A DNA stretch of 55,105 bases, taken from the UHGV virus genome UHGV-0308106, one strand, 5' to 3'. The translations under genes and the position numbers were made by a program. Origin of the DNA: a virus. This document shows, one piece after another, positions 3,340 to 19,004 of this stretch (position 1 is its first letter; each line of letters begins with the position of its first letter). Below the pieces are notes generated by a model that worked only from the letters and a program-made list of their open reading frames with translations, did no database searches and had not been told where the DNA came from.

Positions 3340-6300
3340 TTATGCCTGAGTACGCAGCGCTTCAAGGCGGCGCAGGTCGAAGTCGTTCAGTTCGTCGGTG
3401 TAGTCAGCAGTGATTGGCGCTGGCCATTCACCTGTGTCGAATCCGGTTGCGATATTGCGCATCGCTTTGCGGTACTCGAGCATACCCAGCTCCAGTAGTT
3501 CAGCGGATGCCTCGATGATGGCGATCCAGTGGTAGTTCTCGTCTTTGTTGACGAAAATCCAGAAGAACTGATCCAGCGCTGCGGTTTCGCAGTACATAGC
3601 CGCGCTCAGGTGATAATCACGTTCAATAATTTCCCGGTGTAGCCTGGCGCGCAGGCTTTCCTGCTTAACATTCCACATGCTGATGGTTTTCAGGTCAGCA
3701 CCGATACGCACGCCGTCTAGGTCGATCTCAAGATCAGGGCGCACACGAACTTCCAGTCCCGTCTCCTCGTCAAAGCCAAAGTAGCTCACCTCAACGGCGC
3801 GGCTCGGGTGGGTTAGCAGCATGCCTGCGGTCGGGTGTGCCAGAAGCGCTTTTTGAATATTCAGCGCGGTGCTCAGCTGCTGGCGGGTGACCAGCACTTT
3901 TCCTTCCGGGTTATCGCGCCAGGCATCCAGCAGTTCGTCGGCAAATACGGCATCTGGTTTGACTGCCTTCACGGCCTGGATCATGTCTGCTTTGGTACCG
4001 GACACTTTCAGTGGTGCCGGTTTCTGTGCTTCCTGAGCCACAAGGTCAGGGTTGATGATTGCCAACTGCTCCAGCAGCGCGTCACGGCTGCCGCTGGTTT
4101 TAACCGGCGGCGGCAGGGTGGCGTTGTACTCTTTAATGCATGCCTTCATTGCCGTCGCCGTCTGCTTCTGGTCACCATCAATACGCTGGAAGTCAGCTGG
4201 CAGCGCCATATAGTTCTGTGCCGTTTCTTCCAGGTTAGCGCCAAGCGGAACCTGCGGCGGCAGGGTGGCGTTGTACTCTTCCAGTAACACCTTGATGTCG
4301 TCGGCAGACAGCAGCGCCGGCAGGCTGGCATTGTGCTCATCGATAAAGGCGCGCAGGGTCGCGGCCGTTGTGAATGCGCCTTCAGGGATCACCGGTTCAA
4401 CGCTGAATTCTGCGTCCAGTAGTTCAGGCTGCAACGCCAGCGCATGCACCAAGTTGCCCATGTCCAGCACCGCTGAGCGCTCTTTGACGATGGTTTTCTC
4501 TACGTGGCGCGCATTGAAGTACATCAGCGAAACGCGCGCATCTTTCACCTGGGTTGAGCTGATGCCGTTGGCGGCGTGGTAAACCTCGTTTGGCAGCCCT
4601 TCATAGCGGCCTGGCTCGAAATAAGCGGGATAAACAACAGCTGGTTCGTCAGATTGCGCTTCTGGCTCGGTTTGTGCTGCAACTGGTTCGGTTTGGCTTA
4701 CAGAATCGCTATTTTTGGCGACAGAATCCGTATTCTGGTTTACATCGTCCTTCTGGCTGGTATCTGACTCTTCACCAGACTCCAGACTGCTTTCGCCTGG
4801 CTGTACTTCATCACCAACATTTTTTTCATCACTGACAGTTTCTTGAACCTGCACATTGCTGGTGGTTTCCGTAGCCTGTTTCGTGCCATGAGTTGCTGAG
4901 TTCTGCAGTAAAGCCGTAACATCGAATATTCCGTTGCCGACATTTTTAACCAGTTCTTGTTCGGCTTTATGTGGTTGTGCTGTCGCTTCCTCTGCGCGGC
5001 GGCGTGCTTCTTCTTCACGTACGCGTTGCAGGTTCTCTTCGTGAGTGCAGAAGGATTTGCGCGGAGACTCCTTACCTTCAGGTTGGGGAATTTCCTGTGC
5101 TGCGGGTTCAGCCTCATGCAACGGCAATAACTCGACCGCGGAATTGAACGCGGCTGTCATGGTCTGGTTAACAAATTCCAGGTGAGCGACAGGAGTTAAA
5201 TGAATATTTTCCGGTGCGATACGTACCAGGTTAAAAATAGCCGTGCGGTTAACACCCAGAACGCCTGGCTGATTGCGCAGGATGTTGCTCCATGATTTCC
5301 ATGGTTCTTCTTTTTTGGTCACGATTTCTTTAGCGCGACGAAGAATGCTGCCCGGGATCTCGAAGTGGTTGAAGTCCATAGGCAGAAGGGCACATGCAAT
5401 CTCTAAATCGAGAGTGTCAAGGGTATGGTATGTATCAGGTCCACGGTCAGTGACGTAACCGCCGTTGGCATTGGTTCCGGAATCAGTACGCTGCACACTA
5501 CTGATGCGATTACCGGCGGCCCATTCGCGAACAAGGATACCGCGGTCGATGTGATCTGTAGCGAACCACAATTTCAAAAACTGGATTAAGGTTGCGAGTT
5601 CAGGGATTTTTCCATCGACAGGGAAGACTTTCTTAACGGCATTCACGACTTTATGAATATCGTGCTCAATGGCTTTTTTGAATGCTTCCACATTCTCAGC
5701 TGCCAGCAGCAGGTTCTGGACGTACGCGTCATCGGTGTCCATCTCAAGGCGGACAATCTCATTTTTCTGCCCTGCGTCGATGTGATAGAGATATTCACCA
5801 TCACCGATGAACTGAGCCAGTACGCGCTGGCGGAATGGCAGGGTGGCAACAACGATCAGGTTCGGTTGCTGTGTCTGCTGGGATTGCTCTTCGGTATCGA
5901 CTTCACCATCAACGACGCCACCTTCTGCCCGGCCGTTCTCGTCGGTCTGGATACCGTCCTCAACAGTGAGATCTTGACCAGTTGTAACGTCAGCAGCGTT
6001 GCTGGTTTCAGTTTTGAGCAACTGCAACTTACCACTGCGCCAGTCTTCTACCAGTTGATTGCGGTCACCGGCATCGGTGTTCACCCAGTCAGACATGAAT
6101 GCAGCGATCAATCTTGGTTCGTGCTCTTCGTCTGGTGTGAAAATGTCCTTAACCGCCCGAATCATTTTCCACTCAGCATTCAGGCTGAGTTTGGCGGTCG
6201 CGGGCACATCGTTCCTTGCCACAAGCAGGCTATGGAGATATGTATTGCCTTCATCCAGTGACATTTCGCTGGCAGCCAACTGCTGCTCTTTAGTGACGTG

Positions 6301-13671: not shown

Positions 13672-14271
13672 ATGGCGCACGAACTACAACTCATCAAGCA
13701 TTCCTCAGGAATCCTGATCCCCGCTACGCCGGAGACCAGTGATTTACTGCAATCAAAAATCAAACTCGGCTCCGTACTGGTGGCTGAGTTCCGGCAGGTA
13801 CGCAACCCGGCCTTTCACCGTCGTTTCTTCGCGTTACTCAATCTCGGTTTCGAATACTGGGAACCCACCGGCGGGGCAATCTCCTCCAACGAACGCAAGC
13901 TGGTAACCGGCTATGCCAAGTTCCTTGCCTCATTCGCGGGAAGTGAAGCAGCACTCCTGGATGCTGCTGAGCAATATCTGGACCGCATCGCCGATAAGCG
14001 TACTGGTAGCATCTGCGCCTGTAAGTCATTCGATGCATATCGTGCATGGGTCACTATTGAGTCCGGCCATTACGACGCCATTCAGCTGCCTGACGGCACC
14101 CTCCGCAAACATCCCCGCAGTATCTCATTCGCAAATATGGATGAAACTGAGTTCCAGCAGCTGTACAAAGCCGCGCTCGATGTTCTGTGGCGATGGATAC
14201 TCTCCCGATCATTTCGCAGTTGTGAAGAGGCAGAAAACGCCGCCGCCCAGCTGATGAGCTTTGCGGGGTGA
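13672..14271 (+). CDS. nin-region protein (DUF1367/YbcN-like)
   Basis: 199-aa ORF; motif RNPAFHRRFFALLNLGFEYWEP; position upstream of ybcO-like and rusA. Confidence 0.45.
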   Translation: MAHELQLIKHSSGILIPATPETSDLLQSKIKLGSVLVAEFRQVRNPAFHRRFFALLNLGFEYWEPTGGAISSNERKLVTGYAKFLASFAGSEAALLDAAEQYLDRIADKRTGSICACKSFDAYRAWVTIESGHYDAIQLPDGTLRKHPRSISFANMDETEFQQLYKAALDVLWRWILSRSFRSCEEAENAAAQLMSFAG

Positions 14272-14477
14272 TGGCGATGAAATTTTCCTGGTTCCACCAT
14301 CACGAATGCACCACCGAACAGGCCGACGAGCTGGTGGAGAAATACCGGGCGCGCGGTGTAAAGACAGAGCGCAGCCTGAATCGCGACAACATCACCTGGA
14401 CCGTCAGCGCGCAATTGCCGGAAGGCGATAACGCGCCTCGCCCGAGCCGGGTATGGCAAAGCAAGGCGTGGGGGTGA
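14268..14477 (+). CDS. hypothetical nin-region protein
   Basis: 69-aa ORF, ATGA overlap with upstream gene. Confidence 0.35.
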   Translation: MMAMKFSWFHHHECTTEQADELVEKYRARGVKTERSLNRDNITWTVSAQLPEGDNAPRPSRVWQSKAWG

Positions 14478-14479
14478 GC

Positions 14480-14770
14480 ATGGCAAATTTACGCAAAGAG
14501 GCTCGTGGTCGTGATTGTCAGGTTCGAATTCCCGGCGTCTGCAACGGTAACCCGGAAACGTCTGTACTGGCGCACATTCGCCTGGCCGGGTTATGTGGCA
14601 CCGGAATCAAACCGCCTGATCTGATTGCCACCATTGCATGCTCTGCCTGTCACGACGAGATCGACCGCCGTACACATTTTGTCGATGCTGAGTATGCTAA
14701 AGAATGCGCGCTGGAAGGTATGGCGAGAACGCAGGTTATCTGGCTGAAAGAGGGGGTAATCAAGGCGTGA
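14480..14770 (+). CDS. YbcO-like Cys-rich putative nuclease (DUF1364)
   Basis: [32 protein letters not shown]...CSACHDEID; overlaps rusA GTG start. Confidence 0.55.
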
Positions 14771-15129
14771 ATACTTACAACATCACATTGCCCTGGCCGC
14801 CGAGCAATAACCGCTACTACCGCCATAATCGCGGGCGCACGCACATCAGCGCAGAAGGGCAGGCATACCGCGATAACGTCGCCCGAATCATTAAAAACGC
14901 AATGCTGGATATCGGTCTGGCTATGCCTGTGAAAATCCGCATTGAGTGCCACATGCCGGATCGCCGTCGCCGTGACCTGGATAATCTGCAAAAGGCCGCT
15001 TTTGACGCACTCACCAAAGCAGGTTTCTGGCTGGACGATGCTCAGGTCGTTGATTATCGCGTTGTGAAGATGCCCGTTACCAAAGGTGGAAAGCTGGAAC
15101 TGACAATCACCGGGCTGGAGGCCGTATGA
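14767..15129 (+). CDS. rusA: Holliday junction resolvase RusA
   Basis: [24 protein letters not shown]...[18 protein letters not shown] near-identical to E. coli RusA as recalled; GTG start. Confidence 0.9.
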
Positions 15130-15262
15130 CATTTGAATCCTGTTTTTCCGATCACCTCCGCGTTCGCTGGCAGCGGCTTCGCTTATACCACTTTCCCGGC
15201 TCTGTGCTAACGGACTACCGGATACTGAAGAATTACGTGAAAACTTATGCTGGAGAAGCGCT

Positions 15263-16045
15263 ATGAACCTTGAAAACACAGTGAAATACCACTTCGCTAA
15301 ATCCACACTGATTAGCGATTCTCCGCGCGCTACCGCCTCCGATTCACTGACCGGTACCGACATAATGGCTGCCATGGGCATGACGCAGGAACGCGCCGCA
15401 ATGGGTTACAGCGCCTTCCTCGGCAAGATGGGCATAAGCAATAACGACCGGGATCGGGCGATCGGTCTGCTGGCTGAGTACGCGATGACAAAATGCGACA
15501 AGGTTGCCGCACTGCGTAAGCTCGGTGCCGCGGTTAAACCTCAGGTGATGCACCAGTTGGCCACCTTCGCTTTTGAGGACTATTCCCGCAGCGCTGCCAG
15601 CGTGAAGCAGTGCGATTGTTGTGACGGTCAGGGCTTCATTGAGGCTGACGTGTTTACCAATAAATTCCGTAAGCCAGAAGGGAAAATGACCGTGTCCGGG
15701 ATGGTGAAGGTCAAAGAATCCATCAAAGTGCTATGCAAAAAGTGTAATGGCTCTGGTGTGGTTAGTGCTTCTTGCAGTGATTGCCATGGGCGCGGCAAGG
15801 CAGTGAACCAGGCTCTTACTGAGAAACAGGGCGTTCCTGTTCTGGCTGACTGTAAGCGCTGCGGAGGGCGTGGGTATGAACGACTTCCGTCGACTGAAGC
15901 CTATGCTGCTGTATGCCAGATTACTGACGCCATTAGCCTGGACACCTGGAAAAAGTCTGTTAAGCCATTCTACGACCTGCTGATCACGAAATTTGATATC
16001 GAAGAGTCCTGGGCCGAAAAACAGCTTAAGCAGATAACGCGGTAA
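15263..16045 (+). CDS. late-gene antitermination protein Q-like
   Basis: 260-aa ORF after rusA and before lysis genes; multiple CxxC pairs (CDCCDGQG, CKKCNGSG, CSDCHGRG, CKRCGGRG). Confidence 0.6.
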   Translation: MNLENTVKYHFAKSTLISDSPRATASDSLTGTDIMAAMGMTQERAAMGYSAFLGKMGISNNDRDRAIGLLAEYAMTKCDKVAALRKLGAAVKPQVMHQLATFAFEDYSRSAASVKQCDCCDGQGFIEADVFTNKFRKPEGKMTVSGMVKVKESIKVLCKKCNGSGVVSASCSDCHGRGKAVNQALTEKQGVPVLADCKRCGGRGYERLPSTEAYAAVCQITDAISLDTWKKSVKPFYDLLITKFDIEESWAEKQLKQITR

Positions 16046-16143
16046 CGCCTATAGCGATAGCCTATGATTTTGTCTTGGGCTATTTACTTTTCCCGAATCT
16101 GTGTTAATTTTGTCCCAACGATGGGTTAATGCCTTCGTTTCAA

Positions 16144-16176
16144 GCCCTGCGGATAACACCGTGGGGTTTTTTGCGT
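16144..16176 (+). terminator. intrinsic terminator (tR-prime-like)
   Basis: ccctgcgg-ataaca-ccgtgggg stem with G-U pairs followed by tttttt, about 100 bp after Q stop. Confidence 0.45.
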
Positions 16177-16249
16177 TTCTGGAGACAGCAATACCAAGGT
16201 TCGAGACATTCAGGTAAAATTGATGCATTACAGGATGTGAGGTTGGGGA

Positions 16250-16819
16250 ATGAATAATCTACCCGATGATTACTTTTTGGATGCGGACGACGAACTCGTT
16301 GCTTTTCTGGAGAAGCAGGGCGAGGATTGTATACGCGAAATTCACCAGTCCAACGCACTAAACAAAGAAAATGGCCAGAAGTTATTGAGTATACTCATTG
16401 CTGGCGTGGGCTCGTCATTTTTGTTATTAACGCAACGTACAGGTTTTGATTACCTCACCGCTGGAATGTCTGTTTTTTTAGTCTACTGGGCAATGTGTGC
16501 GGCTTATCTTGTTCGCTGCGTCCTCGTTGTAAGGTCACGAGCTCTCGTGTCATCGACACCCTATGCGCTTTACCATGATGGCTATAAAGGGTTTACTGAA
16601 GATGATTACACTGGTTTTGAGTCGAAAGGATTTTCAGGAAAGCGTTCAACATTGAACGTCTTGCGGCGCTACCGGCTTGCGGATTTAACCAGAATGGCTG
16701 AAATGAGTAAAAAAGAGAATGCCAGAATAGGCCGAGAACTAGAAAGGGTAAGGATCGCTACAATCCTCACCCCTGTTTGTGCACTTGTAATCTCAGTACT
16801 TACTTACCTTTTTTTCTGA
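16250..16819 (+). CDS. membrane protein (moron between Q and lysis)
   Basis: 189-aa ORF with three hydrophobic segments; AT-rich; bracketed by two terminators. Confidence 0.45.
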   Translation: MNNLPDDYFLDADDELVAFLEKQGEDCIREIHQSNALNKENGQKLLSILIAGVGSSFLLLTQRTGFDYLTAGMSVFLVYWAMCAAYLVRCVLVVRSRALVSSTPYALYHDGYKGFTEDDYTGFESKGFSGKRSTLNVLRRYRLADLTRMAEMSKKENARIGRELERVRIATILTPVCALVISVLTYLFF

Positions 16820-17041
16820 TGTTTTCAGCAGAATCGGCAACAAAGGTATAACCTGTCCTCAGATTTCTTTCGGCTGGCTGTGGAGCCGGTTTAGGCTGTG
16901 GTGCGGGTTGAGGCTTATTTTCTCCAGATGGTTTGTTTGATTCACTCATATAATTCTCCATGTTTGATAGGGTTATTTTTGGCGATTTAACGATATCAAA
17001 TACAGTGATTTGCTGCTAGAGCATGCACTTATCTATAACTC

Positions 17042-17069
17042 GCCCCGGCACCCGCTGGGGCTTTTTTAT
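17042..17069 (+). terminator. intrinsic terminator
   Basis: gccccggcacccgctggggc hairpin followed by ttttttatttcc. Confidence 0.6.
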
Positions 17070-17183
17070 TTCCGGCTCACGGTAATCATCCGCTACGTGC
17101 TTTGTTGATAAATCCAACCCGTGAAGCCTGAGCCTATTTCCCCTCATACCTGAGAGGACTCACAGCAATTAAGAGGGGGCTAA

Positions 17184-17570
17184 ATGTCCGATCCAATTTC
17201 CGGTACTGGGCTGGCTGGTGGTGCCCTGACGGGTGCCAGTGTTTATGGACTGCTGACCGGAACTGATTACGGCGTTGTATTTGGCGCATTTGCAGGGGCT
17301 GTATTCTACATAGCAACAGCAGCGGATCTGAGCGCATCGCGCCGACTGGCATATTTTATCGTGTCGTATATTGCCGGGATCCTTTGCTCTGGGTTGGTTG
17401 GCTCCAAGCTGGCAAGCTTGACCGGATACAGTGATAAACCTCTGGATGCCATTGGTGCCGTAATCGTATCTGCTTTAGCCGTTAAGATCCTGACGTTCCT
17501 GAATAATCAGGATATCGGGTCGCTGGTGGCGCTCATAACGCGCCGGGGAGGTTCAGGTGGAGCTAAATGA
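17184..17570 (+). CDS. putative holin
   Basis: 128-aa Gly/Ala-rich multi-TM protein, first gene of lysis cassette. Confidence 0.45.
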   Translation: MSDPISGTGLAGGALTGASVYGLLTGTDYGVVFGAFAGAVFYIATAADLSASRRLAYFIVSYIAGILCSGLVGSKLASLTGYSDKPLDAIGAVIVSALAVKILTFLNNQDIGSLVALITRRGGSGGAK

Positions 17571-17838
17571 CCCGACAGCAACTATAAACGCGCTGTTATG
17601 TGCTTGTGTTGTTATTACTCTGATGTTTTATCGTCGTGGTGATTCGCGGCATCGTCCTTGGGTTTCACGTTTAGCCTGGCTGATTACTGTTACATACAGT
17701 GCTGTTCCGTTGGCCTATCTCTGTGGGATTTATCCCCATTCCTCATGGCCCATTATCGTGGCGAATACTATTTTTCTTTCCGTGCTGGTGGCCGTCAGAG
17801 GCAACGTTGCACGCCTGGTTGATCATCTGAGGCACTAA
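17557..17838 (+). CDS. membrane protein (holin/antiholin-like)
   Basis: 93-aa ORF with two or three TM helices, overlaps neighbours, directly upstream of endolysin. Confidence 0.4.
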   Translation: MELNDPTATINALLCACVVITLMFYRRGDSRHRPWVSRLAWLITVTYSAVPLAYLCGIYPHSSWPIIVANTIFLSVLVAVRGNVARLVDHLRH

Positions 17839-18452
17839 TGAACCAACAATTATTTCAAAAGGCGGCTGGTATCAGCGCCGGACTGGCTGTGCGCTGGTTT
17901 CAACCAGTAGATGCAGCGATGAAAGAATTCGGCATTACAGCACCCGCGGATCAGGCCATGTTCATCGCTCAGGTAGGTCATGAGTCTGGTGGCTTTAGCG
18001 CTGTAGTTGAAAATTTGAACTACACACCATCTGCGCTGGTGGCGACGTTCGGAAAGAGGATCACACAGCAGCAGGCTGATGCCCTTGGCAGAACATCCGG
18101 ACATGCAGCTCGTCAGGATGCTATTGCCAATCTGGTGTATAGCAACCGCCTGGGTAACAAAGCGCCCGGCGACGGCTGGAAATATCGCGGCAGAGGGTTA
18201 ATTCAAATCACTGGCCTCGACAATTATCGCACCTGCGGGGCTGCTCTGAAGTTAGATTTGGTGACTTCACCTGAACAACTGGAACAGGAACTACAGGCTG
18301 CGCGCTCAGCTGCATGGTTCTACACCTCTAAAGGCTGCATGATCTACGGTGCCGATATTAATCGTGTTACTCGCATCATTAACGGCGGTCTGAACGGTAT
18401 TGAGGATCGTAAGGTCCGATACAACAAGGCGCGGGCGGCGCTGCTGGTATGA
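17838..18452 (+). CDS. endolysin, glycoside hydrolase family 19 (chitinase-like)
   Basis: MFIAQVGHESGGF...YRGRGLIQITGLDNYR...INGGLNG motifs typical of GH19 phage lysozymes. Confidence 0.85.
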   Translation: MNQQLFQKAAGISAGLAVRWFQPVDAAMKEFGITAPADQAMFIAQVGHESGGFSAVVENLNYTPSALVATFGKRITQQQADALGRTSGHAARQDAIANLVYSNRLGNKAPGDGWKYRGRGLIQITGLDNYRTCGAALKLDLVTSPEQLEQELQAARSAAWFYTSKGCMIYGADINRVTRIINGGLNGIEDRKVRYNKARAALLV

Positions 18453-18841
18453 AGATGAGTTATTGGGCGCTTATTTTAACGTTTATTGCTTGTATTGCTG
18501 GTGGTCTTGTCTGGTCAGCGAATCATTACCATGGAAAGTTTCTGGAGGAACAGCGGCGCGCTGACGATGCAGAACAGCGCGCTGATTCCTTTGAGACCAT
18601 CACCGCGAATGTCCTGCGCACCGTAGCAATAACGAACATCATTCTGGAGACAAATCAATATGCCAGGCAGCAGATCGCACTGGAGTCACAGAGAACCGAG
18701 AACGATATCAAGGCTGCTGTTGCGGATGATGATTGTGCTGTTCGTTTTGTGCCTTCTGGCGCAGTTAAGCGGCTGCACGACTACGCGAACGGTCTACGTT
18801 CCAGTTCCGGTGGTTCCGTTACCAGCCAACCTGACGGCTGA
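18449..18841 (+). CDS. Rz-like inner-membrane spanin
   Basis: 130-aa; N-terminal TM then coiled-coil-like region; ATGA overlap with endolysin. Confidence 0.65.
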   Translation: MKMSYWALILTFIACIAGGLVWSANHYHGKFLEEQRRADDAEQRADSFETITANVLRTVAITNIILETNQYARQQIALESQRTENDIKAAVADDDCAVRFVPSGAVKRLHDYANGLRSSSGGSVTSQPDG

Positions 18842-19004
18842 AACACCCCAGCCAGATTTACCCGATCCGTTTACGTGGGGAGCAAGCCTTAACCTGAATG
18901 TTGCGTTGTTGTCAGCGTTAGCACAGTGCAACAGGGATAAGGCTGATATCAGGACTTTCGAGAACAACAGGGCAGGACAAACAGATGGCACGATTAAACG
19001 TTGA
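18726..19004 (+). CDS. Rz1-like outer-membrane lipoprotein spanin
   Basis: Starts inside Rz in another frame; MMIVLFVLCLLAQLSGC lipobox; Pro-rich. Confidence 0.6.
   Translation: MMIVLFVLCLLAQLSGCTTTRTVYVPVPVVPLPANLTAETPQPDLPDPFTWGASLNLNVALLSALAQCNRDKADIRTFENNRAGQTDGTIKR

Follow-up and report, generated by a model that had tools for sequence, protein, structure and literature searches.

The segment at 16185-17061 of the virus genome UHGV-0308106, within the window that we analysed (the whole stretch of DNA, 55,105 nucleotides long), is best explained, judging from its sequence and from comparison with related phages, as a self-contained moron that carries a conserved two-gene module and that is placed in the late operon just 3' of the terminator tR'. 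The two genes of this module, one encoding a 189-aa inner-membrane protein and the other a 49-aa hydrophilic protein, converge from their own conserved (putative) promoter elements and overlap at their 3' ends. What is new here is the nature of the cargo, namely an uncharacterised convergent gene pair, conserved in numerous prophages of enterobacteria, for which a defence or toxin role is plausible. We are highly confident that the anatomy of the module is correct as described below. Our main reading of what it does is tentative (probability of about 0.4): it would be a conflict module of this E. coli prophage, in which a membrane effector is joined by a small protein whose expression is coupled to lysogeny.

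A replaceable slot between Q and the lysis genes

The earlier note had read positions 16144-17069 as a moron between Q and the lysis cassette, and comparison with related phages upholds this reading. When aligned with HK225, mEp237 and E. coli KL53, the sequences on both sides are conserved (left flank at 16079-16184; right flank at 17062-17145, + strand), while the cargo, which begins at about 16185, is swapped or absent. The same flanks enclose a gene of 136 aa on the opposite strand in HK225, a gene of 213 aa in mEp237 and, in KL53, approximately 440 bp without an annotated gene. The insert is a classical moron because sister phages with the same flanks hold other cargo or none. The genes on either side of it are direct neighbours in related phages. 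A search of 5426 complete E. coli genomes found the flanks in 81, with the present cargo allele in only 6, and a region identical to the window slot is found in E. coli AR_0119.

The moron concept is said to go back to Juhala and Hendrix, for the phages HK97 and HK022. Like the morons of that concept, the insert is an extra transcription unit between genes that adjoin in related phages, with its own terminator downstream (17042-17069) and a GC content below that of the flanks; its putative promoter elements would be a further point of likeness. The description of the segment as AT-rich is true though modest, as GC content is 43-46% throughout the insert compared with 50-55% in the flanks. It is unlike those morons in that it holds two convergent, overlapping genes and not one, and in that the right-hand recombination junction falls inside the terminator stem. 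Rfam and tRNA scans of 15900-17300 returned nothing credible.

Toxin or exclusion cargo, which the earlier note named as typical of this slot in lambdoid phages, is a reasonable candidate class for the insert. Labelling the slot a defence hotspot was considered and dropped, because the sister cargo proteins HK225 gp67 and mEp237 gp56 have no Pfam match and no meaningful PADLOC match.

The late-control unit on the left

The cargo is preceded by a late-control unit of the lambda type. Q (15263..16045, + strand) encodes a late antiterminator with DnaJ-like CxxCxGxG zinc fingers (Pfam PF03589, E = 2e-45) that is 37% identical to lambda Q (E = 1e-54). It is followed by a lambda-type late promoter pR' (16083..16122, +), which aligns with lambda pR' and is kept in HK225, mEp237 and KL53. 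On the same strand, this promoter comprises a -35 element TTTACT (16083-16088), an extended -10 element TGtTAATTT (16102-16110) and, as in lambda, a sigma-70 pause element AACGAT (16117-16122), the last of these within CAACGATGGGTTAAT, which is identical in the window and in its lambda pR' counterpart in the alignment. As judged from lambda, transcription from pR' would start at about 16117 and would give a leader of approximately 57 nt from start to hairpin, ending at tR', the intrinsic terminator of the pR' leader (16142..16176, +). Both a terminator scan (call at 16142-16169 with a T-run) and RNA folding (-23.9 kcal/mol, z = -3.5) detect the tR' hairpin, and tR' is the terminator that is read through by Q-modified polymerase.

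The cargo had been described as bracketed by two terminators. Both terminators are real, but the first of them (16142-16176) is tR' and belongs to the conserved Q unit outside the insert; it is not part of the moron because it lies within the conserved flank, with the cargo starting only near 16185. Compared with the pR'-qut-tR' region of lambda, the unit has the same promoter layout, the similar Q noted above and a matching pause region (AACGATGGGTTAAT), whereas its leader RNA is much shorter (approximately 57 nt vs. 194 nt for the lambda 6S RNA) and the cargo is inserted straight after tR'. In this short leader (16117-16176), the lambda pause region is exactly kept and the predicted fold consists of two adjacent hairpins. 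Upstream of Q, positions 13672-15266 hold a typical lambdoid nin-region set according to the annotation of the identical RefSeq region, with DUF1367, a small ORF, DUF1364 (YbcO-like), RusA and a YlcG-like 46-aa ORF.

The right-hand terminator and the lysis cassette

The second, stronger terminator that the earlier note placed at 17042-17069 is borne out on the + strand by the terminator scan (17042-17061) and by RNA folding (-17.5 kcal/mol, z = -3.3), with an 8-bp stem that includes 7 GC pairs and with a T6 run. The region contains 5 terminator-like sites, compared with 1.4 +/- 1.2 expected, and those at 16142 and 17042 are the two strongest. The terminator at 17042 separates the module from the holin gene, and transcripts from the putative moron promoters would end there without entering that gene. 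Its stem is specific to each cargo variant (compared in the window, L002, L003 and L004) while the T-run and the downstream flank are constant; the right-hand junction therefore lies inside the terminator, and cassette exchange seems to recombine within it.

Many related loci (L005-L009, L013 and L018, at about 4750-4790) additionally have a second hairpin, located between the promoter box of the small gene and the terminator, whose stems vary but stay self-complementary (GCCAGA...TCTGGC or GCCGCC...GGCGGC). Its counterpart in the window, at 17004-17029, is weak. The mRNA of the membrane protein would carry this hairpin in its 3' untranslated region.

The lysis cassette starts with a holin gene (17184..17570, +; Pfam Phage_holin_8, E = 1e-34), which overlaps a second holin-family gene (Phage_holin_3_7, 17557-17838). 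Next come genes for a GH19-type endolysin (17838-18452) and for an Rz-like spanin (18449-18841), with an overlapping ORF in another frame (18660-19004) that the annotation of the identical RefSeq region gives as Rz1-like LysC.

A conserved membrane protein of 189 residues

Between the two terminators, the 189-aa membrane-protein gene that the earlier note had picked out is indeed present in the ORF list (16250..16819, +; phrog_11870, E = 6e-84). Its product has hydrophobic segments. Enterobacterales contain 115 homologues of it, the majority with precisely the same length of 189 aa and none with a Pfam domain, and the window protein itself has no match in PADLOC, Pfam or NCBIfam models. Both phrog_11870 and phrog_14506, the family of the small protein, are listed as function unknown, and the RefSeq entries for the two ORFs in the identical AR_0119 region (WP_029403922.1 and WP_162842358.1) are hypothetical proteins; a literature search under the accession numbers and PHROG ids returned nothing.

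Hydropathy reveals two clear hydrophobic segments and a borderline one in the 189-aa protein, and the AlphaFold2 model (mean pLDDT 82.5) has helices at 14-62, 68-92 and 134-188, three long helices that are predicted to form a bundle, one half of which is embedded in the membrane while the other half projects into the cytoplasm. The N-terminal region has a net charge of -8 and the loop at 93-167 a net charge of +5; taken together, hydropathy and charge indicate a topology with the N-terminus in and the C-terminus out. The predicted layout begins with an acidic N-terminal helix in the cytoplasm and a TM1-TM2 hairpin, from which a basic cytoplasmic loop of 70 residues, with RRYRL, leads to a C-terminal TM3. 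Residues E21, G24, E25, N38, G52, R140, R142 and N157 are invariant in the family, and in the TM1 stretch G-x-G-S-S the invariant G52 is joined by G54, S55 and S56, each at least 90% conserved. Most of the invariant residues, and nearly all of the conserved polar ones, are predicted to face the cytoplasm, which fits an effector controlled from inside the cell. Structure searches gave generic long-helix matches only, and a PDB sequence search with the family profile gave nothing.

This predicted topology also bears on superinfection exclusion, in which the membrane protein would block the entry of other phages' DNA at the inner membrane and the small gene would regulate it. HK97 gp15, T4 Imm and P22 SieA are membrane-protein precedents for superinfection exclusion, and the present family occupies classical moron slots (between Q and S, and next to cI) with a probable lysogen promoter. 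However, the only parts predicted to be exposed to the periplasm are the TM1-TM2 loop of approximately 5 residues and the C-terminal end, almost all conserved residues are on the cytoplasmic side of the prediction, and there is no match to the SieB, RexB or Imm families (no Pfam match at E <= 0.1). We consider this explanation decidedly unlikely.

The membrane gene is disrupted in three of eight species-representative genomes (L010, L011 and L012). The Yersinia pekkanenii gene is truncated and the Leclercia gene has a frameshift, whereas the coding sequence of Symbiopectobacterium stops short at residue ~112 and gives way to another ORF. Such disruption may reflect a fitness cost.

An antisense gene of 49 codons completes the conserved pair

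The earlier note had also described a 48-aa antisense ORF (16801-16947) with a GGAG Shine-Dalgarno sequence and an overlap with the 3' end of the 189-aa gene. The ORF exists on the - strand, but its length is 49 aa and its span, including the stop codon, is 16800-16949. The GGAG is found at 16959-16956, 6 nt 5' of the ATG, and the overlap amounts to 20 nt. The encoded protein is hydrophilic and Pro/Gln-rich, with a (V/I)GDSA-type motif and a basic tail (phrog_14506, E = 5e-26), and it is probably disordered.

We took a census of the pair over approximately 90 loci, using both genomes and viral contigs as sources. Of the 86 loci with a full-length big gene, about 85 have an intact small ORF, invariably convergent with the big gene, and identity of the big protein among the paired loci ranges down to 48%. 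Most loci have an overlap of 20 nt at the 3' ends, the others one of 23-35 nt, and the median dN/dS of the small protein, calculated outside the overlap, is approximately 0.35. The small proteins share an MS..NKP start, a Pro/Gln/Lys-rich stretch and a C-terminal motif of the F..xR..VGDSA...RKKxK type. Because the ORF is so consistently intact beside the big gene, and because of its dN/dS, these comparisons identify it as a genuine gene, the second member of a conserved two-gene module and not an incidental reading frame.

Within the overlap, the Phe/Leu codons (TTT/TTC) of the last helix of the membrane protein complement the Lys codons (AAA/AAG) of the small-protein tail, and conservation there is therefore not creditable to either gene alone. 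By the same codon comparison, the basic tail of the small protein is partly forced by the overlap. A possible pairing between this tail and the acidic N-terminus of the membrane protein was downgraded to speculation, because the tail codons are forced in this way.

The terminator scan found no - strand terminator after the small gene, and the two transcripts therefore probably overlap extensively, so that the antisense RNA could reach into the other gene. One explanation would accordingly be that the small ORF is not functional as a protein and that the antisense RNA alone matters, as in type I toxin-antitoxin pairs such as txpA/RatA and bsrG/SR4, which are likewise convergent with a 3' overlap. 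Convergent 3' overlap is, however, the only feature in common with the type I systems; where these have a small hydrophobic toxin peptide and a non-coding antitoxin RNA, the present pair has a 189-aa membrane protein and an antisense gene that codes for protein and is under purifying selection. The intact ORF in the ~85 loci and also in distant families, its conserved start, Shine-Dalgarno sequence and GDSA-type motif, and its dN/dS all speak for a functional protein, and make an RNA-only role extremely improbable.

Putative promoters of the two genes

Promoters for both genes were proposed from conservation alone, a consensus promoter scan having called no promoter at either gene. For the 189-aa gene, the putative promoter has a -10 hexamer TAAAAT (16215..16220, +) located 29 nt before the ATG. 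A TAAAAT-like hexamer is found 28-34 nt 5' of the big-gene ATG in most of 59 distinct upstream sequences, with variable sequence around it and no conserved -35.

For the small gene, a box at 16962..17003 (-) is the most conserved non-coding stretch of the module and includes a putative promoter element, an extended -10 TGaTATCGT (16998-16990). The core of the box reads TGnTAT(C/T)GT, and we interpret it as an extended -10 because TG, TAT and GT are kept while n varies. The transcript would then start at about 16983, with a conserved 5' leader after it. The 18-nt box core occurs once in the window (0.05 expected), and a slightly shorter core is found in 47 fetched loci and is absent from HK225, mEp237 and KL53. 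The box was also compared by eye with LexA, CpxR, sigma-E and sigma-54 sites, which were rejected since the spacing or key bases misfit.

In the distant relative L104 (4722-4800, -), the promoter of the small gene comes close to the consensus (TTGTTA, 17 nt, TATAAT) and is flanked by two direct repeats, GT(T/A)ACCACAACTTATAA, with an operator-like look. The GTAACCAC core of these repeats also occurs in the 5' leader box of window-type modules.

Distant relatives lie in immunity and early regions

A profile search of 1.8 billion representative proteins yielded 104 relatives. We examined the contexts of five of these (L099, L100, L104, L108 and L111), each of which has a convergent small Pro/Gln/Lys-rich ORF, and all five contexts are prophage immunity or early regions and not the vicinity of lysis genes. 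Some distant relatives adjoin cI. In L100, the small gene starts 15 nt past the cI stop codon, a spacing at which it is most likely co-transcribed with the repressor. Relatives on the cI side argue for a function in the lysogen and against a function in lysis. As the module is furthermore found upstream of several unrelated ORF clusters, whose holins are not all of one type, and alongside at least two families of Q, we conclude from these varied surroundings that it is independent of the lysis cassette.

The main rival to a conflict module is a lysis accessory: transcribed together with the holins, the membrane protein would act late, as a depolariser or in the timing of lysis, and the small protein and its antisense transcript would serve only to silence it in the lysogen. 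In most of the ~86 close loci, the holin indeed directly follows the membrane gene, which is in the sense orientation, and the anatomy suggests that late transcription would increase the membrane protein while shutting down the small gene; both points would suit a lysis accessory. On the other hand, a partner of the lysis genes is hard to reconcile with the several unrelated holin types that accompany the module, with relatives located beside cI or in early regions far from lysis genes, or with the sister phages that have the same flanks and lack the module, which is therefore dispensable. Neither Pfam nor PHROG gives a match to a holin or antiholin family, and a conserved promoter of its own (putative) would be needless for a purely late gene. 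Overall, we regard a lysis accessory as unlikely.

The same contexts also bear on an addiction module, in which a membrane toxin and a labile small antitoxin would stabilise the prophage without any anti-phage role. Convergent, overlapping genes, a small protein that is probably disordered and hence possibly labile, and a membrane gene whose disruption in the three species-representative genomes hints at a cost would all suit such a module. Yet the prophage is chromosomally integrated, which makes segregational stabilisation needless, and with the small gene on the cI operon, as in L100, it is induction, and not prophage loss, that would shut the gene off. We consider an addiction module very unlikely.

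In filling the slot directly 3' of cI, and in involving a membrane protein, the distant relatives of the module are comparable to lambda rexA-rexB, but there is no sequence similarity between them, and the genes here converge and are not co-transcribed.

Resemblance to PycTM-type membrane effectors

P0155 is clearly in the same family as the window protein (hhalign probability 100%, E = 7e-50). In PADLOC it matches the model for PycTM with E = 1.5e-8 over residues 17-182, nearly the full length of P0155, and a CBASS 2TM effector with E = 4e-5, and it scores 16 bits against Pfam PF18967 (cut-off 27.2), with the caveat that membrane-protein matches of this sort can be composition-inflated. A convincing PycTM score was obtained for only 1 of the 84 family members scanned, and other members have scattered sub-threshold matches to PycTM, SLATT_1, YLATT and 8xMP.

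Beyond the match of this one member, the family is like PycTM, CBASS 2TM and SLATT effectors in size and in layout (an N-terminal helix is followed by a TM hairpin and one more TM helix). It is unlike them in that the window protein is without a match, in that its partner is a 49-aa protein, and in that no cyclase or nucleotide-signal gene lies beside any member examined: PycC was found in none of the contexts listed, and the neighbours in the window are Q and the holin. The family therefore looks like a PycTM-type membrane effector for which homology is only a candidate explanation, the membrane protein is probably a membrane-perturbing effector of the PycTM/SLATT/2TM kind, and the module is not a Pycsar system.

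Proposed working as a prophage conflict module

In our view, the strongest hint of a conflict module expressed in the lysogen is that two genomic contexts, unrelated to each other, both tie the small gene to lysogeny, and since this tie extends to the distant relatives we favour a prophage conflict system. Such a system would be of the abortive infection, exclusion or toxin-antitoxin type, with the membrane protein as effector and the small protein, made in the lysogen, acting either as a gate that restrains it or as its activator. During lysogeny, each gene would be transcribed from its own putative promoter, and the terminator at 17042 would keep the module transcript out of the holin gene. 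Upon induction, Q-modified polymerase from pR' would pass tR' and cross the module. This late read-through would raise expression of the membrane protein and would meet transcription of the small gene head-on, silencing it, and the lytic programme of the prophage itself would thereby shift the ratio of effector to partner.

A comparable layout has been described in two prophage defence systems that are organised as noncontiguous operons. The Tha system of S. aureus prophages is controlled by a small overlapping antisense gene, Ith (PMC11087260), and in the Tai/Ati system of phi80 the defence gene lies antisense inside the Q late operon, where expression of Q lowers TaiEcA protein (PMC11364771). 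Like these (PMC11087260, PMC11364771), the present module belongs to a prophage, has one gene antisense to the lytic operon and overlapping its partner (here the small gene, which lies between pR'/tR' and the holin with a 20-nt overlap), and is arranged such that, as we propose, the phage's own lytic transcription can re-balance the two products. The arrangement is mirrored, however, in that it is the small gene that opposes late transcription here and the large gene that is sense, and the module is not known to be related to these systems in sequence.

A more specific version of the conflict module would be a new, cyclase-independent defence system, in which control over a PycTM-like membrane effector is exerted by a disordered protein of 49 aa, itself tied to lysogeny by two unrelated routes (antisense to the Q late operon, and on or beside the cI operon), and in which lytic transcription resets the ratio of the two and so avoids autoimmunity in the manner of Tha/Ith and Tai/Ati. 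We regard this full version as fairly unlikely. A counterpoint also applies to the conflict module in general: should the small protein act as an inhibitor, this wiring would free the effector in the phage's own lytic cycle, and the role of a lysis helper fits just as well.

Implications

Function aside, our analysis corrects the annotation of this region, as the 49-aa ORF is a real gene that is missed by most gene callers, and the module to which it belongs is widespread in prophages of Enterobacterales and Pasteurellaceae. If the conflict-module reading is true, the pair would be a compact two-gene addition to the defence repertoire of prophages, membrane effectors of the PycTM type would be controllable by a small protein in place of a cyclic nucleotide, and the convergent arrangement would represent a second answer, by means of gene layout, to the problem of prophage self-killing by the prophage's own defence system.
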